From positions 1 to 32,000 of the forward strand of contig CAYZRF010000007.1 in NCBI GenBank assembly GCA_964480775.1: DNA of 32,000 nucleotides, written 5' to 3'. This document shows positions 5,552 to 24,389 of the stretch, one piece after another. The DNA comes from an uncultured Nitrososphaerota archaeon (GTDB taxonomy: Archaea > Korarchaeota > Korarchaeia > Korarchaeales > Korarchaeaceae). Both the position numbers and the translations under genes were made by a program. The stretch's first letter is position 1. Each line of letters starts with the position of its first letter. Under the pieces are notes generated by a model. It saw only the letters and a program-made list of their open reading frames with translations, had not been told where the DNA came from and made no database searches.

Positions 5552-6718
5552 TTGGAGGTTCTTTTCATTGCAAATGGGATAACATCTGAATCTGGGACTC
5601 AAGTAATTGGAGGAGGAGAGGTTAGGTTTATAGAGATAGCGAAAAGATGGAAAAAGAAGGGAATAGATGTTCAAGTATTAACAACAGGGGCTGGAGTGGA
5701 ACTTTGCGAGAAACTCGGGTTAAAAGCGAGTTTTCACATTATTTCCACAGGAAATAGCACGTTTACGGATTACGCAATGACTTTCTTGAGATCTAGGTTT
5801 AAACTTCCTATCAAAGAGTTCAACGGAGTACTGTACTCAACAACCGAACACTTCTATGACTGCGCTCCAGCGTTTAGACTAAGAAAAAAATCTCTTCTCT
5901 GGGTTGCTGTCGTTCACTGGGTAGCTCCGTTTATCAGAAAAGAGGTTGGCATTATTTCAAGTTCAGTTTTCTACATAAATCAAAGATTGGGATTAAGATA
6001 CGTCAAAGCCAGAGCTGATCAAGTATATGCTGTTTCTAGGATAGTCGCTGAGAAGCTTAGGAACATGGGATTTGGTGATAGAGTAAGACCTGCAGAATGC
6101 GGTGTGAACTACGAGGAAATTAGAGAGATAGCAAGTAAGAATGTTGAGCAACTCTATGATGCCATATATATGAAGAGATTCTATCCTACAAAAGGGATAT
6201 TCGATGCCATTGAAATCTGGAAGTATGTCGTAGAGAAGAAAGAAGACGCAAAGCTAATGTTAGTAGGATTCTCTCCAAAATCCATCTTGAATAAAGTCAT
6301 CTCTATGATAAAAGAGAAAGAATTAGAGGATAATATTACTGTTAGAGGACCGGTTTACAACTTTAAACAAAAGATTCTGCTCTTAAGACAAAGCAAGATG
6401 CTGATCCTACCCAGCTATGAGGAAAACTGGGCAATAGTAGTGGGTGAAGCCTTAGCCTCTGGAATTCCCGTTGTAGCTTACGACCTTCCAGATATAAGGC
6501 CAATTTGGGGAGACAATGTTGTATGGTGCCCTCTAGGGGATAAGAAGGTCTTCTCTAAGGAAGTTTTGAAACTGATTGATAGAGAGGAGTTAAGGGAAAG
6601 CCTAGGGAGGAAAGGAATTGAATTAATGAAGAAATATAGCTGGAATTCAATAGCCGAAAAGGAGCTTCGCTTAATTCAAGATCATTTACGAGCAAGAGAC
6701 TCATATATCGATAGATAG
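5552..6718 (+). CDS. glycosyltransferase family 4-like
   Basis: 388-aa ORF. The TTG start at 5552 lies 4 nt after GAGGTGA, which overlaps the stop of the upstream gene and suggests translational coupling. It carries '...PSYEENWAIVVGEALASGIPVVAYDLPDIRPIW...'. Confidence 0.8.
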   Translation: MEVLFIANGITSESGTQVIGGGEVRFIEIAKRWKKKGIDVQVLTTGAGVELCEKLGLKASFHIISTGNSTFTDYAMTFLRSRFKLPIKEFNGVLYSTTEHFYDCAPAFRLRKKSLLWVAVVHWVAPFIRKEVGIISSSVFYINQRLGLRYVKARADQVYAVSRIVAEKLRNMGFGDRVRPAECGVNYEEIREIASKNVEQLYDAIYMKRFYPTKGIFDAIEIWKYVVEKKEDAKLMLVGFSPKSILNKVISMIKEKELEDNITVRGPVYNFKQKILLLRQSKMLILPSYEENWAIVVGEALASGIPVVAYDLPDIRPIWGDNVVWCPLGDKKVFSKEVLKLIDREELRESLGRKGIELMKKYSWNSIAEKELRLIQDHLRARDSYIDR

Positions 6719-7764
6719 ATCTCGGTTACTTTCTTAATATCTCTGAAAGCCCTAACGTAGTTCTGTGCTTCTATAGCCAATCTTCTAGCTAATTCTCTAT
6801 TTGTAAGAAGCCTAAGAATGGCTTCAGCAAACCCCTCTACATCTCCAGTTTCAATGTATATGGCCGAATTTGGTCCGATGCACGAGACGTTCCACTTCTG
6901 GTTTGCACTAACTATCGGCTTTCCGATACAAGCCGCTTCAAGCAGGCTATAGCCCGCATTACCCGGAGCTACAAAGACAGAAGCGCCCCTAATCAGGTTC
7001 AGAGCATCTTCTCTCGAAACTGATCCAACAAAATCCACAAAATCCAAGACTTCAAGACTTTTAGCCAGCTTCTTAAGGAGCTTAAGCTGAGGTCCTCCTC
7101 CAGCGACCACGAATTTAACTTTAACTTTTCGGAGAACAAGTGGAATTGCCCTTACAAAGCTTTCAGGCCCTTTTACGGGTAAAAGCCTCCCTAGATAAAG
7201 AACATAGCTTCCGTCGGGGTTCTCCTGGATTGAACTACACTTGATACCGTGAGGAATTGTAACTATCCCTTCTTGACGGAATTTACTTAATATTTCAAAA
7301 GCCTCCTCGGTGGGGGCTACGGCAACATCTGCAGACTTTATGACATAACCAAACAGGCTGCGGTACAAGAGAGGTCTCAAAACCTTTATGTACCATCTTT
7401 CTTGAAAGCTTCTACCGACATTATGGGCAGTTAGAACGAGAGGAATTTTCCCTTTTTTTGAGGCAAGGGCTGCTATTACTGAAGTCAAATATTCCTGACC
7501 ATGTACATGGATCACATCGTGCTCTTTGCTTAACTTAAAGAAGGAGCGGGGAGAGGGAAAAGGATTGGGAATGGGTGGAAGGGGTCTGAAAGAGGAGAAT
7601 GCATGGACTTCTATACCGTCAACCTCCTTTGGAACTTTACTACATGTATAAACAACAGGCTCATGTCCCATCTTTAGGAGTTGTCTACAGAGTTCGTAGA
7701 CATGAATTTCAACTCCAGCATTAACTTCAGGTACGAAATATGGAGTGACGTGTATTATCCTCAT
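6682..7764 (-). CDS. glycosyltransferase family 4-like
   Basis: 360-aa ORF. Its ATG overlaps the stop of the upstream 859-aa gene (ATGA at 7761-7764). It carries 'YVLYLGRLLPVKGP' and '...GNAGYSLLEAACIGKPIVSANQ...'. Its 3' end overlaps the convergent gene 5552..6718 by 37 nt. Confidence 0.8.
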   Translation of the reverse strand: MRIIHVTPYFVPEVNAGVEIHVYELCRQLLKMGHEPVVYTCSKVPKEVDGIEVHAFSSFRPLPPIPNPFPSPRSFFKLSKEHDVIHVHGQEYLTSVIAALASKKGKIPLVLTAHNVGRSFQERWYIKVLRPLLYRSLFGYVIKSADVAVAPTEEAFEILSKFRQEGIVTIPHGIKCSSIQENPDGSYVLYLGRLLPVKGPESFVRAIPLVLRKVKVKFVVAGGGPQLKLLKKLAKSLEVLDFVDFVGSVSREDALNLIRGASVFVAPGNAGYSLLEAACIGKPIVSANQKWNVSCIGPNSAIYIETGDVEGFAEAILRLLTNRELARRLAIEAQNYVRAFRDIKKVTEIYLSIYESLARK

Positions 7765-10340
7765 TCTTTAACCCTTCTCCTTCTAAACTCGATGTAGATG
7801 GCTGCTGGAAGAGAAATTATGAGACTCATTATTGTGAGCCCTTCGCTTAGAGCCACGTAGCCCAGCTTCTCAAATCTTACCTCGATATCAAAGCTCCCAG
7901 AGGTTTCTGGAAAGATCAACATCATGCCAGGTCCTGCCTTAAATATCTTTAGCCTCTTGTCTCCGAGATAGGCCGACCATCCCTTGTAATAGCTTATCTT
8001 TACGAAGAGAGCATCATCAGCTTCCGCTCCATTTACATGGATTGTCAGCCTTTCAGGCATGAGATAATCAAAGTTCAAAGTAGCACTCGACTTTGGACCC
8101 TTTTCGGAAACTGCTTTGATCATCTCTTCTATAAGAAGAGACTCTTCACGATTCAAGTGATATACGGCATGGTAAGGCAGATTCAAACCAGTCCATAAGA
8201 CCTTTCCATCACCATATTCCATGACTGCGGCTAAGACCGCTTTGTCCTCATCGTAAATAAGAGGAATAGCACCCCCGCGCAGGCTTTCATTTATCGTGTA
8301 TGATATGCCGTACTCTCCTTTGGTGAACAATGAAGTGTAAACAGGTCTCGATGTCCAGTTTCCCACTAAACTTAAGTTGAAATTGCTGTTTCTCGTCCAA
8401 CAATCAGTTATTGGGAAAGGTTCTTCAAGGCCTGTTGAAGCGCCTCCGTGAGGTAGATCTCCCGTATCAAGTATCACCGAGCCCCCGCGTCTCACGTATT
8501 CCCTAAGCTTATCATAGTAATTGTTCTCGTTCAGATACCTTATTCCAAAAAGGTAAAGAACATCAAACTTCGATAGGTTTTCGAGAGATTGGACATCAAC
8601 GAACTCTCCGCCATAAACTAGCAACACATCTTCGGCTCCAGTCGGAGAGATCGCAGCGAAGGTGCGCTGATAATCTGCAAAACTACCGAAGACCATGACT
8701 TTTATCGTATCAGATCCTATTAGTTCAACTAAGGAGGAATTGAAGTTCTCTACTTCATAGAGAAAGAGGAAATCAGAGACCCCTACAAGGCCCTCTCCAA
8801 ACCTAGGATTGTAAAAGAACCTAACATTGTACTGATTTGAAAAATATCTCAAATACGATGGGTCCGACAGAAATAAGAGATAATACCAGAAGGTATAAGC
8901 AAAATCGTTAATCATTTCAACTTGCAGGCTTCCTCCGCTCAAACCTACGTCTGTATAAAGATCAAGCCTCCAAATCCACTCTATCATATCTGTAGCAAGT
9001 CTTTCTCCTTTTCTGGCGTTGTTCCTCAACCATAACATATCTGGCGGGATTTCGGTCTCTATTAGTTTGTGGTGAGGAGCAATATTCACAAAAACCTCTC
9101 TTATCGCAAAGAAGGATGCTGAGACAAGTATAAGCACTAAAAGAATTGCGAATTTCTTCTTATAGGAGGATAGTACCTTCTGGGTGAGATAACCTGCAAT
9201 TAGAGCTGAAAACAAGGAAAAATACGGGGAAAACCTATTTGGCAGAGGAAAAGGGACTTTTAAAATCGGGAAAAGGAGCACAATGAAACTAATTATGAAA
9301 CCCACAGCAGAAAGCTTAGAATAGTCAGCTTTTTTGTCTTTGACAAGAATTGGCAACCCGATAAACGCCAGAGCTATCTGACCTGTGCCTGGAGACCACA
9401 AGTTCCTCTCATAATTAATTCCAAATATCCTCTTTAGGTGATCAAGGATTAACTCGCTCTTGGGTGGGGCGCCAGCTGGCAACAGCCCTATCTGCCAACC
9501 ACGAGTAACTTGAGAATAGCCTCCCTCGATAAAGAAGGGGATCCACCACCAGGCCGATAGCCCAAAACCGACAAGAATTATGCCCGCAAGAGCCTTTGGT
9601 AGGCGTAGAGTGTACTCAGGAAGTTTTGCTCCGGGCTCAATTTTAATGAAGAGCTCTGGTTTCATTATAACCATCAAAACTGAGAAAATTAAGAGAAGAA
9701 GAACAGATATGAAGGCGTCGTGAAAATGGGACAGGGATGTTGCAGCGAAAAGAGCTCCGCCAACTAACATATCTACAGTAGACTGTGTTTCAATAGCTCT
9801 AAGGAGAAAGTAGAAAGTTCCTATGAATAGAAAAACCCCGGTTATCATAGGAATTGCTCCTACATTCCAGAAAGAGTATAGATTGTATGAAAAAGTGAAG
9901 AAAATTGAAGACGCGAGAGCACCGGTTTTTCCTAGCCCAAGCCTTCTTGATAGGAGATAAAGGAAGGCAGATCCCATACCAAAAAAGAGATAAGTGTAAA
10001 CCCTGTAAGCTTGAAAAACATGGATCCTTAGGATCCATCCTATAAAGGCCATAGCTATGTGTGAGAAGGGGGGATAAAACCTTAGGGCAGGACAACCGAA
10101 AAACCAACCATCATTCCATTGAGGTAGCCCAGGGAGGTACCTCATTATCTTGTTGACGAGTGACATATGCATAAGGGGCGATCCTTCCCAAGAGGCCCAT
10201 TTCGGAATTCCTGGAAATACTATGCTAGCGGTGATCGCCGAGACAAGAAATGAAATTATTACTAGAATAGCATCCAAAGGTACCTTTCTTGTCCTCATTT
10301 TACCACCCTCTCGCTTAGAGCCTTTCCTAACTTCAACCAT
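7761..10340 (-). CDS. large polytopic membrane protein, GT-C-like (PTPS-related/DUF2298-like) putative glycosyltransferase, with a soluble C-terminal domain and terminal TM anchor
   Basis: 859-aa ORF. Its ATG at 10340 overlaps the end of the upstream GT2 gene by 8 nt. The N-terminal ~430 aa contain many hydrophobic helices. The first loop reads '...WNDGWFFGCPALRFYPPFSH...', as I recall for the '6-pyruvoyl-tetrahydropterin-synthase-related' membrane family. The C-terminal ~400 aa are soluble, and the protein ends with the TM segment LTIMSLIISLPAAIYIEF followed by RRRRVKE. It sits inside a GT operon. Confidence 0.55.
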   Translation of the reverse strand: MVEVRKGSKREGGKMRTRKVPLDAILVIISFLVSAITASIVFPGIPKWASWEGSPLMHMSLVNKIMRYLPGLPQWNDGWFFGCPALRFYPPFSHIAMAFIGWILRIHVFQAYRVYTYLFFGMGSAFLYLLSRRLGLGKTGALASSIFFTFSYNLYSFWNVGAIPMITGVFLFIGTFYFLLRAIETQSTVDMLVGGALFAATSLSHFHDAFISVLLLLIFSVLMVIMKPELFIKIEPGAKLPEYTLRLPKALAGIILVGFGLSAWWWIPFFIEGGYSQVTRGWQIGLLPAGAPPKSELILDHLKRIFGINYERNLWSPGTGQIALAFIGLPILVKDKKADYSKLSAVGFIISFIVLLFPILKVPFPLPNRFSPYFSLFSALIAGYLTQKVLSSYKKKFAILLVLILVSASFFAIREVFVNIAPHHKLIETEIPPDMLWLRNNARKGERLATDMIEWIWRLDLYTDVGLSGGSLQVEMINDFAYTFWYYLLFLSDPSYLRYFSNQYNVRFFYNPRFGEGLVGVSDFLFLYEVENFNSSLVELIGSDTIKVMVFGSFADYQRTFAAISPTGAEDVLLVYGGEFVDVQSLENLSKFDVLYLFGIRYLNENNYYDKLREYVRRGGSVILDTGDLPHGGASTGLEEPFPITDCWTRNSNFNLSLVGNWTSRPVYTSLFTKGEYGISYTINESLRGGAIPLIYDEDKAVLAAVMEYGDGKVLWTGLNLPYHAVYHLNREESLLIEEMIKAVSEKGPKSSATLNFDYLMPERLTIHVNGAEADDALFVKISYYKGWSAYLGDKRLKIFKAGPGMMLIFPETSGSFDIEVRFEKLGYVALSEGLTIMSLIISLPAAIYIEFRRRRVKE

Positions 10341-11013
10341 ATAAACGCCACTTTAGCAGGGAAAAAAACATCTTAAACGGATCTCTCCAAACGCTGACTC
10401 TAGAAGAACCCCTATAAACGTATTTTACTGGAACATAAGAAATGGAAAATCCCTTCTTAGATGCCTTGACTAGAATCTCAGCATCTATCTCAAATCCATC
10501 TGATTTAATGGGCCAGATCTCTTTAATTACCTCTCGTCTAATGGCTTTCAGACCCGATTGCGGATCCAAGAAATCTCTTCCAAATAGAACTCTTAGAACA
10601 AGTCTGTATAGTGAACTCAGGATTTTTCTAAGCACAGATCTCTTAACATCCACTCTTTGGGCTACCACCAAATCAGCCTCTCCTCTCAAGATCTTTTCAA
10701 CCATCTCAGGTATTTTCTCGGGGGGATACTCCAAGTCCGCATCAAGTACAACTATTATTTCCCCCTTGGCCTTTTCCAAACATCTCTTTATGCCAAAGCC
10801 CTTCCCTTTCCTCTCTTTAAAGCTTAACGAATGAACAGCGTAATGTTCTCTCGCAAGTCGTTCTATGATCTGAGGGGTTCTATCAGAACTTCCTTCCTGC
10901 TCGAGAAATATTTCGAAGTCATATCCTTTTGAGGAAAGTACCTCATAAACTCGTTGAAAGCACTTTTCTACCGTTTTTTCCTCGTTGTAAGCGGGAATTA
11001 TCACAGAGATCAT
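10333..11013 (-). CDS. GT2 family glycosyltransferase, dolichyl-phosphate hexose synthase-like (DPM1/AglJ-AglD class)
   Basis: The ORF track begins at TTG 11070. I prefer ATG 11013, which gives MISVIIPAYNEEKTVEKC..., the canonical GT2 N-terminus. It also carries 'IIVVLDADLEYPPEKI' (DxD). It is small and GT-A-like, as in Dol-P-sugar synthases. Confidence 0.8.
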   Translation of the reverse strand: MISVIIPAYNEEKTVEKCFQRVYEVLSSKGYDFEIFLEQEGSSDRTPQIIERLAREHYAVHSLSFKERKGKGFGIKRCLEKAKGEIIVVLDADLEYPPEKIPEMVEKILRGEADLVVAQRVDVKRSVLRKILSSLYRLVLRVLFGRDFLDPQSGLKAIRREVIKEIWPIKSDGFEIDAEILVKASKKGFSISYVPVKYVYRGSSRVSVWRDPFKMFFSLLKWRLYG

Positions 11014-11015
11014 GA

Positions 11016-11914
11016 TCAACGCCTCTTTTGATTCACGTATAATAACAAGTGGATTGCCACGATGGAACAAGGAAAAGGGACATTTCGGAGATAAAAGTTC
11101 TACTAGTGGTGTACGGACCCTTCGTATCTTTGACGAAGAATCCCTGGCTGGTTCTTACCATTATGTGCACATCTTGGTCTTGAAATTCTATGTCGTCTAG
11201 TTTTGCTCCAATCACAATGCTTGTTCCTGAAACCTGAACGTAAGTGGTTGAGACCACTTGCCAAGAGGAACCGGTCCAGCTATACAGGTTCCCATCAGAA
11301 CTCAATTTGTAGTCATATCCGTAGCTTCCTATGCTTGGACCTCCAGCTTTGGTGTCTAAGTAAACATCGTAGAGATATAAAATAGTGCTTGGTGCAGCCA
11401 CCTCAGCCAGCCTGAAGAAAACGTGAGTTCCATTGTTAGTCAAGTAAAGTGCCTTGTCATCCACAGCGGCTGGTGAAGCATCGTCTATCGGATCAGATCC
11501 GAACTGATACCAGTCGGATGGCCATGCTAGGGAGTTATCGATATTCGTTGATATAATCACAGAGTCTTGAACTCCGTAGGTTGAGTTAACAGCCGTTAGC
11601 GTAACTTGAACATTACCAGATATAGAAGAAGGCAAGATAAGCTTGACAATAAGCGTAGCAATCCCTCCAGAAGCTACGCTTACATCTGTATAGTAATTAT
11701 CCCAGCTAACTCCATTGGAGCTATATGCGACGTGGACATCTCCCTCGTTAAATCCGTCTGTGTCCTGCCATAGGTCAACTTCGATGGTTTTAGTTGAAGA
11801 TACATTGAAGCTAAAACTCATCTCAGAGGGGCCCGTGTTGATGATATATACGTTATATGAAATGTTTGAGCCAGCTGAGCAGGAAGAGGATTGATCAGGT
11901 CTAAAAAAGTCTGC
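11016..11914 (-). repeat. copy A of a ~0.9-kb duplicated gene segment encoding the shared C-terminal module of the two surface proteins
   Basis: Long identical runs are shared with copy B. One 41-nt run, gaaacctgaacgtaagtggttgagaccacttgccaagagga, occurs at 11229-11269 and 12996-13036. 'cgtctatcggatcagatccgaactgataccagtc' and 'acaggttcccatcagaactcaa' are also present in both copies. Confidence 0.85.
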
Positions 11915-12503
11915 TGTGTAATTCACCTCTACCCAAACCTGGGTACATCTTGCCTCGGTAGTAGACGCCCCTCTTAGGTCAACACCAGCCTCCAGAGAAT
12001 CGATGTAATTCCAACTCCAAGGCTCTCCCGTACTGGGATTTGTGGTCCAAGTTCTGTAGTATGTAGTCCAGGAACTCGACAGAGTCCTACGATCTTCATT
12101 AATGTTAAAGATGCTGGGAAAATCAGTTGAACCGACCCTCAAAACTGGTCTAGTAAATACAAGCAATCCAGTCCCACTTTTCCGACATCTAACATAAACA
12201 GTTACTGAATTAATGATTCCAGATCCTTGAGAATGATTTTGGAGACTATATGTATCCCGTCCATAGGGATAAGGAGTAGTCGTGTAATAAACGTATGTGG
12301 AATCCTCATCAGGCATAGTTTCATCAACGCACTCCCAGTTTTCATTGCCGCTTGGATAAGGATTTAGAAGGTACCAACTTCCATTTCCGTCTGGCCTCAA
12401 AATCTCAGTATCTGGCTTCCCTATTATTTCTATTCTTAAATGACAAGTTGTTTCGATAAAAATTAGAAAAAGCAGAATAAATGTGAGAAAAAAATCGTCT
12501 CAC
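11016..12503 (-). pseudogene. secreted surface-protein paralog, disrupted by two 1-nt frameshifts (or a recoded gene); the intact central ORF is 11033..12400 (455 codons)
   Basis: GTG at 12503 lies 7 nt after AAGGAGG and encodes MRR. A T7 run follows (A7 on the plus strand, 12488-12494). With T6 the frame would continue MRRFFLTFILLFLIFIETTCHLRIEIIGKPDTEILRPDGNGSWY..., a signal peptide joined to the 455-codon ORF. At the 3' end, around 11062/11063, one base is missing relative to the paralog. The restored frame reads ...LFLVP(I)VAIHLLLYVNQKRR* and stops at 11016, aligning with PIATILLLVYISKKRSK* of the 1025-aa protein. Confidence 0.7.
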
Positions 12504-12778
12504 CCGGGACCCTCCTTATAGGATGTTTGCCAGATCCGCTCATGGTTTGAGCATAAGCACCCAGACCTTTCACGAAACTGACATAAATTCCTTATTGCCC
12601 CTGAATATTATTTTTTGTATGTAAGCGGGTAATAACTATTTCTATTTTATGATATCTTTGTTTTCTCAGATGTAATTTAAACGTTTTTCGAGGGCTTATA
12701 GATCCTCTTGGTAAAGGAAATTAAAGTCAAAGCTTCAAAATCCTGAGACGTAAACTTATTCCTCAAGTCTCGCTTTTT

Positions 12779-13705
12779 CTATTTGGATCTCTTTTTACTT
12801 ATGTACACAAGCAACAGAATGGTAGCGATTGGGACGATAAATAGAGGCATCTCAAATATGAACGTTCTCGTTGTGGTATATGGGCCTTTTTCATCCTTAA
12901 GGACTGTTCCTTCATAGGTTCTCACAAGTATGTGCACGTCTTGATCCTCAAATACCATGTCACTGAGGTTAGCTCCAATCACAATGCTTGTTCCCGAAAC
13001 CTGAACGTAAGTGGTTGAGACCACTTGCCAAGAGGAGCCAGTCCAGTTGTACAGGTTCCCATCAGAACTCAACTTGTAGTTATAAGTGTAATTTCCTATG
13101 TTTTGACCTCCCGTTCTTGTGTCCATGTATACTTCATATCGATAAGAGACAGTACTTGGCGTTGCCGCCTCAGCCAGCCTGAAGAAAACGTGGGTTCCAT
13201 TGTTAACTGTGTAAAACGACTTGTCATCCACGGCTGGAGGAGAAACGTCGTCTATCGGATCAGATCCGAACTGATACCAGTCAGATGGCCATGCCAGGTA
13301 ATTATCGATTATCGTTGATATAAGAACAAAGTCGTGAGCACCAGAACCCGAACCAGTTGCTGTCAGATTCACTTGGACCGTGCCTGATGCTGATGAAGGT
13401 AGGATTATCGTTACAATAAGCGTTGCGCTAGCACCAGAGGAAACACTAATGTCCGGTTCACCATTTGAGTTGCTGTCGCTGTAAACAGAATCCCATACCC
13501 CATCTCCATCTGCGTCATATGCTATGTGCGTGTCTCCGCCATCCATCCAATCTGTATCAACCCAGATGTCTACCCCAACTGACAGATTAGAGCTTCCTTG
13601 TAGGTCAAATACATCGTCTGAGGATCCAGTATTGATTAAGTAAACGTTATACGATACATTTGAGCCCGCGGCTGCTGAGAATGTCTGATTGGGCTTGAAC
13701 TCCAC
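12779..13705 (-). repeat. copy B of the duplicated C-terminal module segment
   Basis: See copy A. At the protein level the module runs from GVEFKPNQTFSAAAGSNVSYNVYLINTG to the C-terminus. It aligns with ADFFRPDQSSSCSAGSNISYNVYIINTG to the end of the 455-codon ORF. Confidence 0.85.
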
Positions 13706-15856
13706 TCCTCCTACAACAACTGTGAAAGTGGTCGAACCACAATGGGAAACCCCATTAGTCTCCTTGGACAGAACAACTACGAGGTACTCACCCGTTGGAG
13801 CCGTGGAAGATAGTGGATAATCATACCTAAATATCTTGTAAAGAGAGGGGGAACTTGGATCTGTCGTTTCCAAGGTCATGGTTTGGTTATTCACAGCCTT
13901 AGTGTTGTTGGGGAAGTATATTGTGACCCAGGCCCCCACTATATCGCCAGATCCAAAAGGATCGGTAACGTTGGCCTTGACGACAACGGTTTCCCCTGGA
14001 TTAAAGGTGGATTTCTCCGTATTCGTCTGGTCATATGTCTTCACCCATTCTAAATTGACGAATGTGGAGGTAGGTATCTCAATTCTTGAATTGTAGGTCT
14101 GAGAGTTGTAGTAAACCTCAATCCAAGGGGTAGTAAAACCTGACTCTGTAAGAACTTCTACCTTTAGAGTTATGGCATCTCCGCTTGGTATGCTGCTAAT
14201 GCCTGATATCGTGAATGTATACCAGCCAGCACTCGTTATATCGTTAATAGTATCTGAATAAACAGGACTTCCATCGTAAGTTAGGCTTACCCTAACATCA
14301 GGATATAGATACACGAAAAACCATCCAGGATGGGGTACAATGTATAAATTAACAGTTATATCATCTGAAACTATTAAATCTGATGCAAAGGGAGGAGATT
14401 GAGTCCAAGAAGCTGATCCACCGTTGCTTATGCTCTCACTAAGCGAAGAAGTTCCTTCCTGCGTCTTCAATGAGTACCCATTTCGCAAGTAAAGTTGCTT
14501 ATATATTGGATAAGCTCGGGTCTTCAGATTACATATCGGACCAACGGTTTCTGAGGATCCAGTTATGGGAGAAGTGTAAGTGGCCTTTGTTCCCTGGGGT
14601 CCTGGGGGCATGTTTATGGAGAACTGTGAACTCGATGATGGCGTGATTGATACTCTGTACCTCATCTCTGCATACGAGCCAGCAGACAGGGACCCAACAC
14701 TCCAATCGATCCTTCTATTAACGGAATCATAGGTGGCACTACCTGCTGTGGTTGTTAGAGAGTCCTGCCATGTCACATCTGATGATACGTAATCTACAAC
14801 AGCAACATTGTTTAGCGTTAAGGAAGTGGGATTGCTTATTCTAACCCTCACTTCAAATGTGCTAGTAATGCCAACGCGAGGAGGATCGGGTCCAGAGACC
14901 GTTATGTAACTCTTTGAGAGGATGGGTTTTGGAGGTGCTTCTCCTGAGTCCGTTGGTAGGTATATTTTGATAGGATTTCCATCATAATCATAGGCTTCGA
15001 CTACACCGTAGTTGCCCCCAGATCCGTAATATGTGATGTTTACCTCTAGGTGCCACAAGCCATAATCATCAGACTCTGTATCTTGCGTCCAACCAGAAAT
15101 TGTGTGAGAATTCCAGGCAGCATTATTTGAAAGTTCAGTGTCATCAAATTCATCGGAGAAACTACCAGATGGACTTGTGACTCTTATGTAACCTTGGCTA
15201 CCGCTAGCATCTGTGTCCCAATCCCACTCTCTTATGCTGAACTGGCAACCCTGATGAACATAGAGGTAAAGGTCATATTTCCTTGACTGGGAGGGGTTGG
15301 TGCCGACGCTAGCCCTGTAGAAGTAGATGTTCAGACCGTTTGCTCTTAGTCCAAAGTAGTTAATGTCATCTCCAGAAGTGACAGCACTCGAAGAATCTAC
15401 TCTTAACTCCCAGACACCACTTGAGGGGTTGGAGACCTGGTAGAAATCCCACCAAACCCCATCGCTACCTGAAGGACCCGAGGAATCTGCAGTAATTGAT
15501 GTTACCTGTGCTCCGCTGGGATCATACAACGTGAATTTCGTTGAGGTATCCCAGGAAAAACCTCTACGCCTGTCCCTGTTAGCTGATTCTTCAGCACTTC
15601 CTCCCAAACCTACATCTGGATCAAATATGTCTATGTCAAGTACTGAGGTTCCAGGAGGGACTTCTATGTAAAACGAATAGTAGGTATTTGCTCCATCGCT
15701 TGTGCTGTAATAGTCTCCATATTCTGATGGAGCCCCAGAACCCTGAACGCAGAGCCACTGTCCATTTAAAGAAGACGAAGTTGAGACGTGTTCAAAAGGT
15801 ATAGATGCTAGAAGCATCAGAACTAGTAAAATTAACGTTGATACGAGCCTTCTCAA
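12779..15856 (-). CDS. large secreted surface (S-layer/adhesin-like) glycoprotein candidate with a DUF11-type repeat and a C-terminal motif+TM+basic sorting signal
   Basis: 1025-aa ORF. The TTG start at 15856 is preceded by GAGG. The signal peptide is MRRLVSTLILLVLMLLASIPFEHV. The protein is Ser/Thr/Gly/Asp/Tyr/Trp-rich and beta-type. A DUF11-like segment reads 'VVDYVSSDVTWQDSLTTTAGSATYDSVNRRIDWSVGSLSAGSYAEMRYRVSITP'. I count about a dozen N-x-S/T sequons, mostly in the C-terminal half. The C-terminus is ...TTRTFIFEMPLFIVPIATILLLVYISKKRSK. Confidence 0.8.
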   Translation of the reverse strand: MRRLVSTLILLVLMLLASIPFEHVSTSSSLNGQWLCVQGSGAPSEYGDYYSTSDGANTYYSFYIEVPPGTSVLDIDIFDPDVGLGGSAEESANRDRRRGFSWDTSTKFTLYDPSGAQVTSITADSSGPSGSDGVWWDFYQVSNPSSGVWELRVDSSSAVTSGDDINYFGLRANGLNIYFYRASVGTNPSQSRKYDLYLYVHQGCQFSIREWDWDTDASGSQGYIRVTSPSGSFSDEFDDTELSNNAAWNSHTISGWTQDTESDDYGLWHLEVNITYYGSGGNYGVVEAYDYDGNPIKIYLPTDSGEAPPKPILSKSYITVSGPDPPRVGITSTFEVRVRISNPTSLTLNNVAVVDYVSSDVTWQDSLTTTAGSATYDSVNRRIDWSVGSLSAGSYAEMRYRVSITPSSSSQFSINMPPGPQGTKATYTSPITGSSETVGPICNLKTRAYPIYKQLYLRNGYSLKTQEGTSSLSESISNGGSASWTQSPPFASDLIVSDDITVNLYIVPHPGWFFVYLYPDVRVSLTYDGSPVYSDTINDITSAGWYTFTISGISSIPSGDAITLKVEVLTESGFTTPWIEVYYNSQTYNSRIEIPTSTFVNLEWVKTYDQTNTEKSTFNPGETVVVKANVTDPFGSGDIVGAWVTIYFPNNTKAVNNQTMTLETTDPSSPSLYKIFRYDYPLSSTAPTGEYLVVVLSKETNGVSHCGSTTFTVVVGGVEFKPNQTFSAAAGSNVSYNVYLINTGSSDDVFDLQGSSNLSVGVDIWVDTDWMDGGDTHIAYDADGDGVWDSVYSDSNSNGEPDISVSSGASATLIVTIILPSSASGTVQVNLTATGSGSGAHDFVLISTIIDNYLAWPSDWYQFGSDPIDDVSPPAVDDKSFYTVNNGTHVFFRLAEAATPSTVSYRYEVYMDTRTGGQNIGNYTYNYKLSSDGNLYNWTGSSWQVVSTTYVQVSGTSIVIGANLSDMVFEDQDVHILVRTYEGTVLKDEKGPYTTTRTFIFEMPLFIVPIATILLLVYISKKRSK

Positions 15857-15863: not shown

Positions 15864-16481
15864 CTACTCCCCCGGCTTTCTTTTTGCTTCTGGATTTGAA
15901 TACCGAAGGTAAAGTGAAAAGAACCCTTTCTTAGGAACCATAGGTGCTTTAGAAGTAATTACCACCTTAGAGCCCTCTATACTCACATTGAACGCGTCTT
16001 CAGGAGAAATTTTGAGTTCTTTTACCTCTGCTCCCTTTGGCAAGACAAATGTTATGGACAGATTCGTTGAAACACCTGTTAAACCTATTTTTTCCAATAA
16101 AAGGGCGATAGTTGAGGCCATATCCTCTTGGACGACGAAATCAATCCCGTCGCAAGGAGGAGAATGTCCAGTTAGCTTCAAGGATACTGATGCCTCTCCG
16201 CCTTTGAAGCTAAAGCTGACAAATTCACTTGATACCTTCAACCTCTCTGACAAAAGAGATTCGGGTTTCTTGGAGCTTCCTAGCATTTTACTAAATGCCA
16301 TCGCAGAGTCTCCAGATAATTTGATGTCTACGAAGGCTTTGGTAGACTTTTGGCTAAAAACAAATTTCAGATCGACCGAGATGGATGATGCCAATGGCTG
16401 TTGAGCATTCATCCTTACCGAGATCCCGGCGACTATCGAAAGTAACGCAATTATTATGAGAGCAGAGGCAGTTAACTTCAT
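15864..16481 (-). CDS. secreted or membrane-anchored protein of unknown function, encoded between the archaeosortase-like gene and its putative cargo
   Basis: The ORF track starts at TTG 16499. I prefer ATG 16481, which gives MKLTASALIIIALLSIVAGISV..., a signal or anchor helix, because a TATA-like box sits about 27 nt upstream. The stop lies 7 nt before the start of the 1025-aa gene. I recognise no family. Confidence 0.6.
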   Translation of the reverse strand: MKLTASALIIIALLSIVAGISVRMNAQQPLASSISVDLKFVFSQKSTKAFVDIKLSGDSAMAFSKMLGSSKKPESLLSERLKVSSEFVSFSFKGGEASVSLKLTGHSPPCDGIDFVVQEDMASTIALLLEKIGLTGVSTNLSITFVLPKGAEVKELKISPEDAFNVSIEGSKVVITSKAPMVPKKGFFSLYLRYSNPEAKRKPGE

Positions 16482-16504
16482 GATAAGTAGGTAGTCCAAA
16501 ATGA

Positions 16505-16636: not shown

Positions 16637-17401
16637 TCAAGAAGCCTCCGTCAGTTGCCCAATCGCAATCCCAGCAAAAGTTGCTAAGTAGATGAAATCT
16701 ATGAAAGTCCCAGCTAAGTAGTGGAGGAGCAGAAATGCTAGGGCTCCTACGTGGTAGAGGGTTGCTATTGTTACTGCAAGCCTCAGAATGTTCCAAGCAA
16801 CGGAAAAGAGCATAGTAGCACCCAACCAGAATAGTTTTGTGTGGAGAGGCCCTTTAAGACCAAAGACTCCTATAGAAAACGCAATCGAGATCAAAATGAA
16901 CATTAAGACCCCTGAACAAGACCAATCAACGGTTATCCAAGTTAATCTGTGGGGAATACCCCAAAATGCATTGTAGAGCAGTGCCGTTCCTGCCAACGGA
17001 GCTATTATGAACCAGAGGATCTTTATGGGGAAGGGGATTTTCTTCAGTTTCCAGATTATGAACGAGGCTATAGCTAGGTTTATCAGAATAAATACGACGG
17101 TAGATGGATCGGGCCTCTTATAAGGAACTGGAAGCTCAAAAGTCGGACCACCAGCCATGTATTTTAGTGGGAAGAGTTCAAAAAGCGATCTCGCCCTTCC
17201 CATATCGAACAGTCTATATGGAACATGGGCTATGTCTAGGAGCTTTGCTATGCTCCTTGCCTGAAACCACCAATATCCTAGGAAATTTGTACCTACTAAG
17301 TAAGTAGCAAGAGTCGAAAGAAGGAGACCTACTAAAAAATGAGCCTTTTGAAAACCAGGAAACCAGAAGGCTCTTTTTAGCTCCTCGCCTATACTCTCCA
17401 A
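16637..17401 (-). CDS. exosortase/archaeosortase-family integral membrane protein (putative transpeptidase)
   Basis: 254-aa multi-TM ORF. The TTG start lies 7 nt after GGGTGA and overlaps the upstream gene by 13 nt. The C-terminal half reads ...ITVDWSCSGVLMFILIS...(45 residues from the Cys to the Arg)...VAWNILRLAVTIATLYH...LLLHYLAGTFIDF. This reproduces the conserved Cys (xCSGx), Arg (NxxR) and His order and spacing that I remember from EpsH/XrtA ('vaeaCSGlr ... aNglR ... H..yG') and ArtA. Confidence 0.65.
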   Translation of the reverse strand: MESIGEELKRAFWFPGFQKAHFLVGLLLSTLATYLVGTNFLGYWWFQARSIAKLLDIAHVPYRLFDMGRARSLFELFPLKYMAGGPTFELPVPYKRPDPSTVVFILINLAIASFIIWKLKKIPFPIKILWFIIAPLAGTALLYNAFWGIPHRLTWITVDWSCSGVLMFILISIAFSIGVFGLKGPLHTKLFWLGATMLFSVAWNILRLAVTIATLYHVGALAFLLLHYLAGTFIDFIYLATFAGIAIGQLTEAS

Positions 17402-18066
17402 GCATCTGTCACCCTAAGTCTCTCTGGCAGCACTTTTTTGATAGAATCAACCACCTTGACTCCTTCTACTGCATAAACCTTGGTCTTTCCTAAGGCTCCA
17501 GGTTCGATATAAACCGTCTTCCCAGATACTAAGCCACCACCTTCCTCGCCCATTCCTATTACAACACCCTTAGCAACATATATTGATCCTCTAGCATCAA
17601 CGCAGTTGCCTATAATTGTCCCTTCTCCAATAGCAAGCTCTCCTTCTACAACTATGGACTTTCCAATTCCGTTCTTAGGTCCTATAACTGCATCTCCTTT
17701 CACATGAATTCCACCTTTTACTGCGACTTCTTCCTTGGAGAAGAAATTTCCTAAGACTATGAGGTTGTAAGGAATGAATTCCTTGGCTGGTACTGTGACA
17801 TCTCCCTTAATTCTGATGGTTTCAGCACCTTGAAGCCACACTTTCTGGGATTTTAAGTAAGATGGCTTCTTGTTTCTTTCTAGAGCTTTAATAGCCTCTT
17901 CAATGAGCCCCAACTCCTCCGCCCTATGTAGAATCAGCAGCTCTGGGATGTTTATCCCGTATTTAAGAAAGATCTCCTCTCTTAACATCTCAATTGTTAG
18001 CTCGCCAAATTTCTGCTTAATCAGGTTGTCAAGGGCTGAAGACCACTCTATCTCCTTTGTCATCAT
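17389..18066 (-). CDS. beta-helix repeat protein, bactofilin-like (polymer-forming cytoskeletal/DUF583-like), with an N-terminal helical domain
   Basis: The ORF track starts at TTG 18096. I prefer ATG 18066 (MMTKEIEW...), which lies 8 nt after GAGGGA. The C-terminal ~120 aa read 'VKGGIHVKGDAVIGPKNGIGKSIVVEGELAIGEGTIIGNCVDARGSIYVAKGVVIGMGEEGGGLVSGKTVYIEPGALGKTKVYAVEGVKVV'. This shows the periodic hydrophobic/Gly pattern of a bactofilin-type beta-helix. Confidence 0.5.
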   Translation of the reverse strand: MMTKEIEWSSALDNLIKQKFGELTIEMLREEIFLKYGINIPELLILHRAEELGLIEEAIKALERNKKPSYLKSQKVWLQGAETIRIKGDVTVPAKEFIPYNLIVLGNFFSKEEVAVKGGIHVKGDAVIGPKNGIGKSIVVEGELAIGEGTIIGNCVDARGSIYVAKGVVIGMGEEGGGLVSGKTVYIEPGALGKTKVYAVEGVKVVDSIKKVLPERLRVTDAWRV

Positions 18067-18076
18067 TTTACATCCC

Positions 18077-18733
18077 TCACCCTTCAAACATTCCAATAAG
18101 CTTTGAGGAATTGATTACCTCAATTCCATGTTTGGCGCTTGCCTCTCCTATCTCGCAACCTTCTGCTGCCTCAATGGTCTTTTCCGAGGTAACTTTTCTT
18201 ACGCTACAACCCTTTGAAATGACTATCTTGCCTTTGGCGTCGATCCACTCATTGACTTTATTGTTACTATCTAGAAAGATGTCTGAGTCGGAAGCAAGGA
18301 AACTTATCTCGCAATTCTGTCCCACCTTGATGTTTCCAGTTGAATAGGCTCCTCCAGTAATCTTGCAATTTCTACCAATAGAAAGATCTCCTATCACAAT
18401 AAGGAGTTCTTTCATTTCGAAGTTGTCAGGAATGTGCGTGTCTCCATAAATTAACCTAAAGTAGCCAAGATCTGAGTGAAACTTAGGTTTTTGAGTTAAA
18501 AACGTCTCTGGCGACATCCCTCCGCCATCTCTCGAGATGAAGCCTAGTTCTACGGCTGGTTCAACCCTTTCTCTTAGAAGCAGAGCTTCCTCGTTGTCAC
18601 AAATGCATCTGTCTAGGTTTATGTAAAGAGGCCCTGGATCAGCAGCTCTGTTGTACTCAATAAATCCAAGGACAAAAGGTACCGAAGCTATAGCACCGAA
18701 AAGGGCCAGTAACAAAATGTATCCGAGAATCAT
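18077..18733 (-). CDS. membrane-anchored beta-helix repeat protein (N-terminal TM plus a bactofilin/hexapeptide-like C-terminal domain)
   Basis: 218-aa ORF. Its ATG overlaps the GT2 stop (ATGA at 18730-18733). The N-terminal TM is MILGYILLLALFGAIASVPFVLGFI. The C-terminal region reads 'IGDLSIGRNCKITGGAYSTGNIKVGQNCEISFLASDSDIFLDSNNKVNEWIDAKGKIVISKGCSVRKV..EAAEGCEIGEASAKHGIEV', with about 6-residue periodicity. Confidence 0.5.
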   Translation of the reverse strand: MILGYILLLALFGAIASVPFVLGFIEYNRAADPGPLYINLDRCICDNEEALLLRERVEPAVELGFISRDGGGMSPETFLTQKPKFHSDLGYFRLIYGDTHIPDNFEMKELLIVIGDLSIGRNCKITGGAYSTGNIKVGQNCEISFLASDSDIFLDSNNKVNEWIDAKGKIVISKGCSVRKVTSEKTIEAAEGCEIGEASAKHGIEVINSSKLIGMFEG

Positions 18734-20115
18734 TCTTTTCTCACCTTCTTTCCTCCACCATTTAGGTACCTTAGTCCATTTCCGTTGTGCTGGGTCTTGT
18801 GCCAGTTATTCTTGTTATTGTTATGGTTGTTCTTGTTATTGTTCAGGTTGTTGTAATAGAGCAGGCCATTTCCAGCTTTTTTCGTTTTATGCCACTTCTT
18901 TGATTGATGCTTTCTCCTATGCAACAGAATTGCTTCGAAGAATGCAACAGTGCAGACCCAAGCATTGTGTACCACGAGTATAAGCATCGCTGGAAGAAGC
19001 CATGAGGCCCTTTTCCTACCGTCCAAGTAAGCACTGGCTACCACTTCGTTGAACATGGCGAAGTTGCCTAGGTTGGTGTAAGAGATGCTCATTGGTATTG
19101 CTATGAAGAATGAGGACCATGGCTGAGGAACAAATAGGTAAGACACTACCCCTAAAACCCAGCCCACAAAAACGAAAACTGGAAGCACAAAGGTTCCTAA
19201 GAGAAGAACACCACTAACCTTCTGCCAAAACGTAAGGAACGGGGATTTTATAACGGAGGTAAGGTGCTCAAACAAACACTGATCGTGGCCTATCGCCCAC
19301 CTTCTTAGCTGCTTACTTCTTTGCTTCCACGTAGGAACGACTTCCTCATAGGCTTCTGCTGCATTTATGTATACAAGCTTCCAACCCCCTAGGAAAATTC
19401 TGAAAGATAAATCAGTATCCTCAGCTAATTTTGTCTCGTCCCATCCTCCCAACCGCTTAAGGATGTCCCTCCTGAAGCCTCCAACCGTTCCACCATAAAG
19501 AGTTATCAGGTCTAAGTTGTACCTAGCCTGCTGGTCAACTTGATATCCAGCAGACCTTTCTAGGTCCAGAAGCCTAGTTGTTAGGCTATCGGGGGAGTTT
19601 GCTGGTACCACTCTCCCCATAACGGCACCAACTTCGGGATCATAGAACGGAGCAACAAGCCTCTTGATACAGTCCTTTGGTGGGAGGTAGTCTGCGTCAA
19701 ATGTAATTATGATATCGTTGTGTGCAAATCCTAAGGCTACGTTCATTGCTTCTGGCTTTCCATTTCCTCCGCTCTCAGTTCTATGCACCGCCTTTATGAA
19801 CGGATACTTCTCTGCAAACTCGTCAATTATTTCCCCGGTCCTGTCCTCTGAGCAGTCATTTAGTGCAATAACTTCGTACATCCCATTTTCTTTTGGATAA
19901 TCCATCTCTACAAGCCTTTGAAGAATGTGAGGAGCAACTGCCTCCTCATTATGCATCGGCACTATTATGCTGACGCTTGGTAGGTAATGCCCAGCAAGCT
20001 CCTGGTAAGCTCTTCTCTGCTTACCATAGAGCCTGTTCCAAGTGAATTTATAGTGCCTAATGGCGTAAGCCGTCATGATTGTAAAAAGAATCATGAAAGC
20101 AATTTCTAATAGCAT
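18730..20115 (-). CDS. processive family-2 glycosyltransferase (cellulose/chitin/PNAG/hyaluronan-synthase class) with an Asn/His/Lys-rich repeat tail
   Basis: The longest ORF begins at TTG 20172. I prefer ATG 20115 (MLLEIAFMILFTIMTAYAI...), an N-terminal TM preceded by GGGTG. Motifs are SVSIIVPMHNEE, NDCSEDRT (D), ITFDADY (DxD), GGTVGGFRR, AEDTDL (TED-like) and QRSKQLRRW (QxxRW), followed by C-terminal TM helices. Confidence 0.85.
   Translation of the reverse strand: MLLEIAFMILFTIMTAYAIRHYKFTWNRLYGKQRRAYQELAGHYLPSVSIIVPMHNEEAVAPHILQRLVEMDYPKENGMYEVIALNDCSEDRTGEIIDEFAEKYPFIKAVHRTESGGNGKPEAMNVALGFAHNDIIITFDADYLPPKDCIKRLVAPFYDPEVGAVMGRVVPANSPDSLTTRLLDLERSAGYQVDQQARYNLDLITLYGGTVGGFRRDILKRLGGWDETKLAEDTDLSFRIFLGGWKLVYINAAEAYEEVVPTWKQRSKQLRRWAIGHDQCLFEHLTSVIKSPFLTFWQKVSGVLLLGTFVLPVFVFVGWVLGVVSYLFVPQPWSSFFIAIPMSISYTNLGNFAMFNEVVASAYLDGRKRASWLLPAMLILVVHNAWVCTVAFFEAILLHRRKHQSKKWHKTKKAGNGLLYYNNLNNNKNNHNNNKNNWHKTQHNGNGLRYLNGGGKKVRKE
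18733..18894 (-). repeat. in-frame tandem repeat (two ~30-codon units) and Asn-codon low-complexity tract in the GT2 tail
   Basis: The protein reads WHKTKKAGNGLLYYNNLNNNKNNHNNNKNN then WHKTQHNGNGLRYLNGGGKKVRKE. The two TGG codons are at 18894-18892 and 18804-18802. The plus-strand DNA shows a repeated 'ttcttgttattgtt'. Confidence 0.8.
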
Positions 20116-20272
20116 GCTACCGCACCCTGTGATACCGACACCAATGACTTGGCTATCTTCGAATTTTCTCAACTAAGACTTAAAAAATGTGCTGTTGGCC
20201 CGTAAATTTTGCAAGTACAGCAATCAACCGATTAAATCGCGAAAACACTTTGTAGGCGTAAGATCTAAACTG

Positions 20273-20725: not shown

Positions 20726-20908
20726 GTTGGATCTAAATGCTTAGTTATGCTTCCTTTAAAACCATTCTGCTATTCAGAGGGGTTATGATAAGCTCCCACA
20801 CTATGGGCCTGGATTTTACCTCTGTTTCGAAATTTCCAACCAAACATTTTTCTGATGTTACGATTTTCATACTCAGGTGATCTGTTGTCTCGTAGTGTAA
20901 AGACAGGA

Positions 20909-21775
20909 ATGGGGTTCGAAATAGAACTGCCAGCATCTTACCTTCAGCTCAAGAGAGATGCTGAAGAGACGATATCAAGCATAGTTGCGGACTATCCCAA
21001 AGCGCAGAAGATGTGGGAGATAATGAAGGATGACAAGGAGGTAAACGCAAATTGGGACATGGCTGATTACATTACCACGGCTAAGCTGCATTATAACGAC
21101 CATGGGGAGGTTCACGCAAAAGTAGTGGCTGCAAACGCATTGAAAATGCTTAAGTTACTGTTGGAAGAGGGGATCCTTCCTGACATAATGAAAGAGAGGG
21201 CAGGAGATGAGGACGATGCTCATCTCATCGTGATGACTGGCGGACTACTTCACGACATAGGGAATCAGGTTCACAGGGAGCTGCATAACTTAAGCGGAGT
21301 TTACTTGGCAATTCCTCTGCTAAACAGGCTGCTTCCAAAAATATACTCTGATCCCGAGGTGATGTACGAGATAAGGGGTCATATCCTTCACACAATATAT
21401 TCGCACGAGTTCGAAATAGACGATCTAACGGTGGAAGCCTCTTTAGTGGGAATAGCAGATGGGACCGACATGACAAAGGGCAGAGGCAGACTTGCCTTTG
21501 AGACGGGGAACGTCAACATTCACACAGTCTCTGCACTTTCCATAGAGAGAGTGGAGATAGAGAAGGGAGAGAGAGCTCCCGTAAGGATCAAGATCTGGAT
21601 GAACAACAGCGCGGGCATCTTCCAGATACAGGAAACTCTAGGCAAGAAGATATCTCACAGCCGTCTAAAGGGAAAAGTGGAGATATACGCAATCTCTCAA
21701 CCGGAAGGAGTGCCAACAGATAGCAGGATAATTCACCGGCTTCTGTTCAGTGAAAAGGGTTTCGAAGCATATTAA
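20909..21775 (+). CDS. HD-domain metal-dependent phosphohydrolase
   Basis: The ORF is open from ATG 20855. I prefer ATG 20909 (MGFEIELPASY...). It carries 'NDHGEVHAKVV' (H) and 'GGLLHDIGNQVH' (HD), the classical HD-superfamily signature. Confidence 0.75.
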   Translation: MGFEIELPASYLQLKRDAEETISSIVADYPKAQKMWEIMKDDKEVNANWDMADYITTAKLHYNDHGEVHAKVVAANALKMLKLLLEEGILPDIMKERAGDEDDAHLIVMTGGLLHDIGNQVHRELHNLSGVYLAIPLLNRLLPKIYSDPEVMYEIRGHILHTIYSHEFEIDDLTVEASLVGIADGTDMTKGRGRLAFETGNVNIHTVSALSIERVEIEKGERAPVRIKIWMNNSAGIFQIQETLGKKISHSRLKGKVEIYAISQPEGVPTDSRIIHRLLFSEKGFEAY

Positions 21776-21802
21776 TCAATATTTCTACCTCGGTGAGTCC
21801 AT

Positions 21803-22822: not shown

Positions 22823-22831
22823 TTAGGAAAA

Positions 22832-23677: not shown

Positions 23678-23813
23678 TTTTGCTCCCTTGATATAAGAGG
23701 AATAGATAACAGATAACTCTTTCTACCTAAAAGTTCCTCAACAAGAGAAAAGAGACAGCCGTTTTCCTAAGACTCTTTTCATGTGGTTCATTAACGATGA
23801 GAAAAGTTTATTA

Positions 23814-23848
23814 TTGTTATACCGTATAACCGTTATACGGTATAACAA
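23814..23848. promoter_or_regulatory. perfect 17-bp inverted repeat with a 1-nt spacer, a putative operator overlapping the promoter of the RHH gene
   Basis: TTGTTATACCGTATAAC c GTTATACGGTATAACAA. The half-sites contain TATA-like GTTATAC/GTATAAC. The element ends 14 nt before ATG 23862, with a GGTG SD-like site in between. It also causes the mirrored 'YRITVIRYNN' peptides seen in both-strand ORFs of the track. Confidence 0.7.
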
Positions 23849-23861
23849 CAGGTGTGTGTAT

Positions 23862-24350: not shown

Positions 24351-24374
24351 GGAAAAACACGTACTTCAAATACA

Positions 24375-24389
24375 TTTTTTCTATTTTTT
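24375..24389 (+). terminator. double oligo-T tract (T6 n3 T6) after the RHH gene
   Basis: 'caTTTTTTctaTTTTTTg' begins 25 nt after the stop at 24350. Confidence 0.4.

Follow-up and report, generated by a model that had tools for sequence, protein, structure and literature searches.

A candidate archaeosortase and its putative target, co-encoded with a membrane glycan synthase in TACK archaea

A 254-residue membrane protein encoded on the minus strand of the DNA analysed here (the window: 32,000 nucleotides, positions 1 to 32,000 of contig CAYZRF010000007.1, assembly GCA_964480775.1, from an uncultured Nitrososphaerota archaeon that GTDB places in the Korarchaeota) carries the Cys, Arg and His motifs of the exosortase/archaeosortase superfamily, and two genes downstream lies the gene of a secreted surface protein that ends in a conserved motif, a hydrophobic helix and a basic cluster. 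Family membership, conservation of the motifs, predicted topology, conservation of the operon and the co-occurrence of the tail with the Cys-bearing clade are all observed, and we consider it likely that the membrane protein acts as a dedicated peptidase or transpeptidase of the archaeosortase type, which would remove the C-terminal helix of the adjacent immunoglobulin (Ig)-like protein or proteins near a Ser-Glu-x-Pro-Leu sequence (SE-x-P-L) and transfer them to a lipid or a glycan.

Membership of the exosortase/archaeosortase superfamily

The gene (16637..17401, minus strand) starts with TTG, and its product, with seven predicted helices, is the same as NCBI protein P0131. The original prediction, made from the sequence alone, had recognised in it a Cys-Arg-His signature, and the open reading frame (ORF), the motifs and the 45-residue spacing hold up on re-examination: WSCSGV occupies residues 160-165, NILRL residues 204-208 and LLLHYLAG residues 224-231, with exactly 45 residues between Cys162 and Arg207. 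The invariant motifs of the EpsH family are Cys-x-Gly, Asn-x-x-Arg and His-x-x-x-Gly (Haft 2006, PMC1569441), and all three recur here in extended form and in the correct order, as C162-S-G164, N204-I-L-R207 and H227-Y-L-A-G231. The corresponding minus-strand codons are 16916..16918 for Cys162 (TGT, the putative nucleophile), 16781..16783 for Arg207 and 16721..16723 for His227, and in the alignments the three residues fall in the conserved columns of the family, in agreement with the published motifs. The critical residues of Haloferax volcanii ArtA are Cys173, Arg214 and Arg253 (PMC9263693); the Cys-Arg distance of about 41 that the prediction had given for ArtA was thus right, whereas the conserved His that it ascribed to this enzyme belongs to the EpsH/exosortase consensus, the third critical residue of ArtA being an Arg.

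The NCBIfam signature model TIGR04178 matches residues 157-243 (16673..16933, minus strand; model positions 2-89 of 97) with 32.3 bits against a curated cutoff of 23 (E=9.3e-8), which puts the motif match above chance. All other NCBIfam matches also lie with exosortase-family models and below their cutoffs, namely XrtG (TIGR03110; 16.1 bits, cutoff 102.75) and ArtF (TIGR04293; 15.7 bits, cutoff 150). At E<=10, the NCBIfam models of ArtA and ArtC gave no match to the 254-residue protein, nor did any NCBIfam or Pfam model of CPBP/Abi or CAAX proteases, myxosortases, rhomboids or transporters, which is the outcome that the prediction had anticipated for a profile search. Because the signature cutoff is passed, the subfamily cutoffs are not reached and no CPBP or transporter model matches, the protein is a member of the superfamily, whose enzymes are intramembrane cysteine peptidases or transpeptidases, and stands outside every named subfamily.

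Its relatives are few. A word-indexed search returned 11 clusters with 46-87% identity, the closest relative being GenBank RLG46433.1, a ‘hypothetical protein’ from a hydrothermal metagenome-assembled genome (MAG) labelled Thermoproteota/Korarchaeota, and when 1.84 billion representatives were searched exhaustively with a profile, 42 proteins came up at E<=1e-3, all exosortase-like, about 15 of them full-length (243-271 residues) and the remainder relatives of about 180 residues. The signature TIGR04178 is matched by 22 of 36 relatives. The short relatives were considered as bona fide XrtG or ArtF proteins and rejected as such, in that they pass the generic signature and none reaches the XrtG or ArtF cutoff. 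Scans of genomes and metagenomes yielded 34 loci (7 from genomes and 27 from metagenomes, some duplicating one another; numbered with the prefix L below), and those with an organism label come from Guaymas-type Thermoproteota MAGs, a ‘Kor4’ MAG and Bathyarchaeia, i.e. all from TACK archaea. The family alignment of 12 sequences (A1; 46-87% identity) shows no variation at Cys162, Arg207 or His227, and the CxG, NxxR and HxxxG motifs are invariant in the approximately 20 loci of the Cys-bearing clade, at identities of 35-87%.

Predicted structure and topology

The AlphaFold2 model of the protein, built on a 24-sequence alignment (pLDDT 82.3, pTM 0.75), contains helices at residues 19-38, 40-57, 99-118, 124-147, 165-178, 186-217 and 220-251. 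Cys162 stands directly ahead of helix 5, Arg207 falls within the last third of helix 6, and His227 within the opening turns of helix 7. This layout fits the expectation that the three residues would cluster at the outer face of the membrane, in that all of them would come to lie towards one side, on successive helices; their location at the extracytoplasmic face, as described for EpsH, is predicted from the basic character of the short loops on the opposite side (K119-K120 and K183 to K189), a positive-inside pattern. Compared with the short relatives, the protein has an insertion of about 90 residues (58-147), modelled as an extracytoplasmic beta-hairpin loop plus two helices, and its N-terminal 150 residues match no model in NCBIfam or Pfam.

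The neighbouring surface protein and its putative sorting signal

What might such an enzyme act upon? The candidate substrate, encoded two genes downstream (12779..15856, minus strand), is a secreted surface protein of 1025 residues that has a signal sequence at its N-terminus and ends in a tripartite signal; it has weak MG2/DUF7927 Ig-like matches, and its orthologues sit at the same position in loci L001, L004 and L013. Residues 716-1025 (12782..13711, minus strand; alignment A5) form a conserved C-terminal module of two beta-sandwich domains, a linker and a transmembrane helix, the end of which is the proposed sorting signal GPYTTTRTFIFEMPLFIVPIATILLLVYISKKRSK (12782..12886, minus strand), in which GPY..(I/F)-(S/F)-E-(M/I)-P-L-x-x-(I/V)-P is followed by a hydrophobic stretch of about 15 residues and then by a cluster of basic residues. 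The AlphaFold2 model of the module (pLDDT 80.5) shows the two beta-sandwich domains and the helix, and the linker ahead of the helix, modelled with low confidence, coincides with E-M-P-L. No spacer separates the motif from the helix, and signals cut by membrane-embedded sortases have been described by Haft as having the motif directly against the helix. Tail and module match no NCBIfam or Pfam model, PGF-CTERM and the other CTERM models included. In Foldseek the module resembles generic tandem Ig-like surface or matrix proteins (RbmA, WxLIP, antigen I/II); an enzymatic role for the surface protein was considered and set aside, since the fold search returned only proteins of this kind.

A module-bearing protein is present in the cassette of every complete Cys-bearing locus, down to a sortase identity of 35%, and the tails at these loci end in G-P-(Y/F)-x-I-L-R-N-N-I-S-E-(I/M)-P-L-x-L-(I/V)-P, the helix and R-R-K-K. 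In Bathyarchaeia the module of the last approximately 310 residues constitutes the whole protein, which has about 350 residues with its N-terminal signal sequence. The module also occurs joined to varied N-terminal regions, in proteins of 512 to 1031 residues. A profile search collected 76 module clusters, almost all with the tail. An alignment of 71 sequences has Glu1002 and Pro1009 without exception, Pro1004 and Leu1005 each at about 90%, and the upstream K-D and G-P-Y at 87-100%. A local hidden Markov model of the tail (hmmsearch) retrieved only module proteins among 2,999 ORFs (431 kb), the next best match having E=0.17, and a 44-column tail profile run against a collection of 5.8 billion proteins gave nothing at E<=10, with the known members also unretrieved. 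With this undescribed tripartite signal two genes downstream, and with no named Art or Xrt model near its cutoff, the original prediction's idea of a new subclass with a new signal of its own is borne out. The subfamily, as yet without a name, consists of mid-sized proteins (about 250 residues) with a characteristic seven-helix build; it is coupled to a glycan synthase, and the new signal would be its cognate one.

The association of enzyme and target can also be followed in reverse. On a 71-kb Bathyarchaeota contig, a look-up that took substrate P0114 as its point of departure led to an intact sortase at L043:5135-5869 (plus strand) with DWSCSG, NLLR and HYFIG, which the source annotation had not called, giving a 115-residue ORF on the opposite strand instead. 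GenBank labels the gene a hypothetical protein, and since the gene caller of at least one source missed it, the family is probably under-represented in protein databases and under-counted. Haft takes neighbouring genes for enzyme and target as the mark of a dedicated one-to-one system, and the enzyme-target synteny found here is of that kind.

In most of the Bathyarchaeia substrates (e.g. L020 5103-6155 and L022 5122-6195) an N-I-S N-glycosylation sequon directly precedes the invariant Glu; it is absent from the window's own clade, which has T-F-I-F or T-L-I-S in its place.

The window also holds a paralogue of the substrate module. It spans 11016..12400 (minus strand) with its signal split by a 1-nt frameshift, and is called as a product of 455 residues; the signal reads ...FISEMSLFLVP and continues as IVAIHLLLYVNQKRR, followed by a stop, in the next frame (11019-11063), whereas the orthologues P0124 and P0125 are intact and end in SEMSLFLVPIVATLLVLYVTRKRRR. 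A second frameshift may separate the start MSGSGKHPIRRVPGETIFF from the signal-peptide-like FFLTFILLFLIFI (12400-12560). The disrupted copy is either a pseudogene or the product of homopolymer sequencing errors.

Cys-less sister clades

Conservation of the presumed catalytic residues is not uniform across the wider family. Arg207 is invariant in 24 of 24 full-length members and present in at least 90% of a 34-sequence alignment, whereas the Cys column holds Phe in P0012, P0014 and L036, Gln in P0016, Ser in P0017, Thr in P0018 and Arg in P0019, and the His227 column varies (E/Q/Y/D) in several members of the Cys-less clades. In a neighbour-joining tree of the catalytic region, computed without support values and without named reference sequences, the full-length proteins with Cys, Arg and His form one clade and the Cys-less ones form its sister clades. 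Given this variation in the Cys column, catalysis should be claimed only for the Cys-bearing clade, which includes the gene in question.

The Cys-less loci with enough flanking sequence, L036, L039 and L040/L041, contain no module- or tail-bearing protein, which speaks for a functional connection of the Cys with the protein that has the tail. The genes for the synthase and the beta-helix proteins are kept at these loci, and a UDP-GlcNAc 2-epimerase is often present. Among the short relatives, P0027, P0037, P0038, P0050 and P0051 (about 180-190 residues) have Arg for Cys and Asp or Glu for His. This R-R-D/E subclade mostly passes TIGR04178 (P0038 gives no match) and is possibly a second lineage of pseudo-enzymes.

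Proposed mechanism and alternative explanations

How would the proposed archaeosortase-like enzyme operate? The surface protein would be exported by Sec, and its C-terminal helix and basic cluster would keep it in the membrane for a time. In the next step the sortase would recognise the juxtamembrane (I/F)-(S/F)-E-(M/I)-P-L-x-x-(I/V)-P, and Cys162, helped by Arg207 and His227 at the outer face of the membrane, would cleave off the helix; the new C-terminus would finally be passed to an acceptor, either a membrane lipid, as with ArtA, or the glycan that the synthase of the operon produces. We infer cleavage, the cleavage site and the acceptor.

Several observations weigh against this scheme. 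The protein scores only 16.5 bits with the Pfam model Exosortase_EpsH (PF09721), under the gathering cutoff of 25.7, with residues 157-245 aligned to model positions 161-250 of 254, i.e. the catalytic part (a precomputed PF09721 match exists for two relatives, P0009 and P0011). Neither a PDB sequence search nor Foldseek (best E=0.68) found a solved homologue of the sortase, leaving it without a structural template. The excess of conservation in the juxtamembrane segment is modest (mean top-residue fraction 0.79 against 0.72 in the rest of the module), and all signal-bearing proteins are homologous to one another, so that the conservation of the tail could reflect the ordinary constraint on a membrane anchor. 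One of the two patterns used to retrieve loci demanded CSG, which biases the sample, and by the neighbour-joining tree the link between Cys and substrate amounts to about one evolutionary event. At L006/L015 (a 2.6-kb contig of MAG B8_G17) a second Cys-bearing sortase copy with 69% identity has both beta-helix genes upstream, and at L006 a family 4 glycosyltransferase (GT4) gene follows the sortase directly, with no gene for the 211-residue protein that intervenes in the window and no adjacent substrate; the same MAG also has the complete locus L003. Finally, the constant partner of the sortase-like gene, even at Cys-less loci, is a membrane glycosyltransferase of family 2 (GT2), and since this synthase persists where the Cys is gone, the core role of the family may be other than proteolysis.

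This last point bears on the strongest of the alternatives, namely that the protein has no proteolytic function and serves the GT2 synthase as an accessory subunit, for example as a scaffold or a partner in translocation or acceptor handling, in which case the Cys-Arg-His set would be ancestral baggage and the neighbour's tail a permanent anchor with a conserved juxtamembrane contact site. The sortase-like gene is indeed translationally coupled to the synthase in every locus, also where the Cys is replaced by F, Q, S, T or R; the synthase is better conserved (47-82%) than the sortase-like protein (28-87%); Lys189, Gly219 and Asp235 are near-invariant throughout the family alongside the invariant Arg207, and Cys and His are not; and XrtG-type cassettes are not known to have a target, the association of a glycosyltransferase with XrtG being confirmed by NCBIfam. 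We nevertheless judge such a role unlikely, given that Cys, Arg and His are strictly invariant in the gene's own clade across identities of 35-87%, that loss of the Cys coincides with absence of the tail-bearing protein and that the tail has the canonical layout of motif, helix and basic cluster with an invariant Glu and an invariant Pro.

Quite unlikely, in our estimation, is that the sortase-like protein is an integral part of an archaeal exopolysaccharide synthase complex and attaches the adjacent Ig-like protein covalently, by its C-terminus, to the growing glycan or to the lipid that carries it. Were this so, it would supply the chemical link of exosortases with exopolysaccharide that has long been postulated and never demonstrated, and the Cys-less clades would be pseudo-enzymes with a structural role only, i.e. 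a transition from sortase to scaffold with both states preserved in one lineage.

Might an active archaeosortase instead process many proteins, with this or a looser signal, encoded elsewhere in the genome, as ArtA and XrtA do, with the adjacent protein being just one of them? The sequence examined comprises 32 kb from the genome itself and 431 kb from related contigs, the window itself already contains two signal-bearing paralogues, and the module occurs behind varied N-terminal regions, all of which would suit such a one-to-many system. Against it, every significant tail match lies on the same homologous module, the enzyme-target synteny is constant, the hallmark of one-to-one systems according to Haft, and both the substrate family, with its 76 clusters, and the enzyme family are small; we therefore hold it to be improbable. 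A chance resemblance of the motifs, in a membrane protein of unrelated family (for example a transporter or a protease of the CPBP/CAAX type), could draw on the subthreshold Pfam score and the unmatched N-terminal region, but it deserves practically no credence, as it is effectively refuted by the TIGR04178 score, by the confinement of the other matches to XrtG and ArtF, by the signature matches of the relatives and by the exclusively exosortase-like yield of the large profile search.

Relation to known systems

The nearest named relatives of the protein are XrtG, ArtF and ArtC, and not ArtA. XrtG is the best-scoring named subfamily, and a membrane GT2 synthase is encoded nearby in both cases, in an analogous arrangement in which the synthases are not orthologues; the third member of the XrtG cassette, a PTPS-related membrane protein, has a counterpart in the PF10131 protein of the window operon. 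The differences are that XrtG has about 187 residues, as opposed to the roughly 90 extra residues found here, and that it belongs to Firmicutes, not archaea. No substrate is known for XrtG, whereas the window protein has an adjacent candidate. ArtF and ArtC (TIGR04293/TIGR03762) are archaeal and of the same superfamily, with weak profile similarity in the catalytic region, but they differ in length and N-terminal architecture, and the PEF-CTERM-type signals of ArtC are not present here.

By analogy, the protein would work like ArtA with its PGF-CTERM substrates, although by the models of these subfamilies it is not an ArtA, ArtC, ArtF or XrtG. ArtA removes the C-terminal helix of its substrates, to which a lipid is attached (PMC6098224, PMC9263693). 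Both proteins are polytopic, with 41 residues between Cys and Arg in ArtA and 45 here, and both are associated with secreted surface proteins in which the motif abuts a helix followed by a basic cluster. However, the third residue of ArtA, Arg253, comes 39 positions after Arg214, whereas His227 comes 20 positions after Arg207, and ArtA serves a PGF signal on several unlinked substrates in Euryarchaeota, as opposed to an SE-x-P-L-x-x-x-P signal on a syntenic target in TACK archaea. With XrtA/EpsH the protein shares CxG, NxxR and HxxxG, linkage to an exopolysaccharide locus and a resemblance to the PEP-CTERM signal, in which an invariant Glu is likewise flanked by Pro. EpsH differs in having at least eight transmembrane segments and about 25% identity within its own family, set against a Pfam model that stays below threshold here, and PEP-CTERM systems differ in being one-to-many and in belonging to bacteria with an outer membrane.

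What would be gained if the proposed assignment were correct? A form that is catalytically intact, as far as motifs can tell, and paired with a substrate would be extended to TACK archaea, namely Bathyarchaeia and hydrothermal Thermoproteota. These lineages are uncultured, and their envelopes are essentially unknown. Archaeosortases have been characterised only in Euryarchaeota, in the form of ArtA. A review likewise confines the archaeosortase family to ‘a subset of Euryarchaeota’ (PMC6098224), and literature searches on ArtF, and on archaeosortase together with Bathyarchaeota, returned nothing relevant. The new sorting signal could become an annotation model, and one enzyme with an adjacent target and an adjacent synthase would offer a clean system in which to approach the question of the exosortase-type acceptor. 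The Cys-less clades, with synthase and without target, provide a natural control that also bears on target-less relatives such as XrtG.

Operon and flanking genes

The sortase gene forms part of a tightly packed operon, all on the minus strand, that runs from the synthase to a GT4 gene. It opens with a PgaC/IcaA-like membrane GT2 synthase of cellulose-synthase-like fold (18730..20172), which overlaps by 4 nt the gene for a membrane-anchored beta-helix protein of 218 residues (18077..18733), which in turn overlaps by 20 nt the gene for a second, hexapeptide-like beta-helix protein of 235 residues with an N-terminal helical domain (17389..18096); the latter overlaps the sortase start by 13 nt. 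The sortase gene (16637..17401) is separated by 137 nt from the gene for the 211-residue protein, which has an N-terminal membrane anchor (15864..16499), and this by 7 nt from that of the 1025-residue surface protein (12779..15856), after which 378 nt intervene before the 455-residue paralogue (11033..12400, as called). There follow, with overlaps of 38, 8 and 4 nt, an AglJ-like (Dol-P-sugar-type) GT2 gene (10333..11070), a gene for a PTPS-related/YfhO-like membrane protein (PF10131; 7761..10340) and the GT4 gene (6682..7764), the last one listed in the operon.

The synthase matches TIGR03937 (PgaC/IcaA) over its full length (E=7e-38) as well as Pfam Glyco_trans_2_3; the XrtP- and XrtG-associated glycosyltransferase models also match, TIGR03111 with E=1e-15 and 57.5 bits against a cutoff of 364, and its PDB matches include 6yv7, a crenarchaeal membrane GT2, and BcsA. 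Wherever a fetched locus extended far enough for a judgement, the sortase-like gene adjoins this synthase (47-82% identity) and the beta-helix protein or proteins. The two beta-helix genes are separate in the window and fused in L036 (12428-13747), L039 (3582-4745) and L002 (8755-10419), which suggests that the two proteins act together with the synthase; the possibility that they are recognisable acetyltransferases was discarded, as they show only weak left-handed beta-helix (LbH) similarity and belong to no named family. The 211-residue protein is kept in close relatives only (44-64% identity in L001, L003, L004 and L010) and matched no family in NCBIfam/Pfam profile searches. The downstream AglJ-like GT2, PTPS-related and GT4 genes are collinear in L001, L004 and L005, and homologues of the PTPS-related protein are present at Bathyarchaeia loci too.

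The cytoplasmic C-terminal tail of the synthase is rich in Asn and Lys and contains W-x-K-T-x-x-N-G-N-G-L-(R/K)-Y (18730-18870, minus strand, in the window; L001 7300-8676; L002 6675-8012), a motif common to orthologues of 57-79% identity. The left flank of the window (916-7764) holds five further GT4 glycosyltransferase genes, which points to a large glycan-biosynthesis island. The right flank (20855-28456) encodes an AIR-synthase-related protein, an SDH-type ClpP-like protease/NfeD, a DUF4349 protein and a PmbA/TldD pair, and is collinear with L001, so that the whole region, more than 25 kb, is syntenic between genomes related at 76%.

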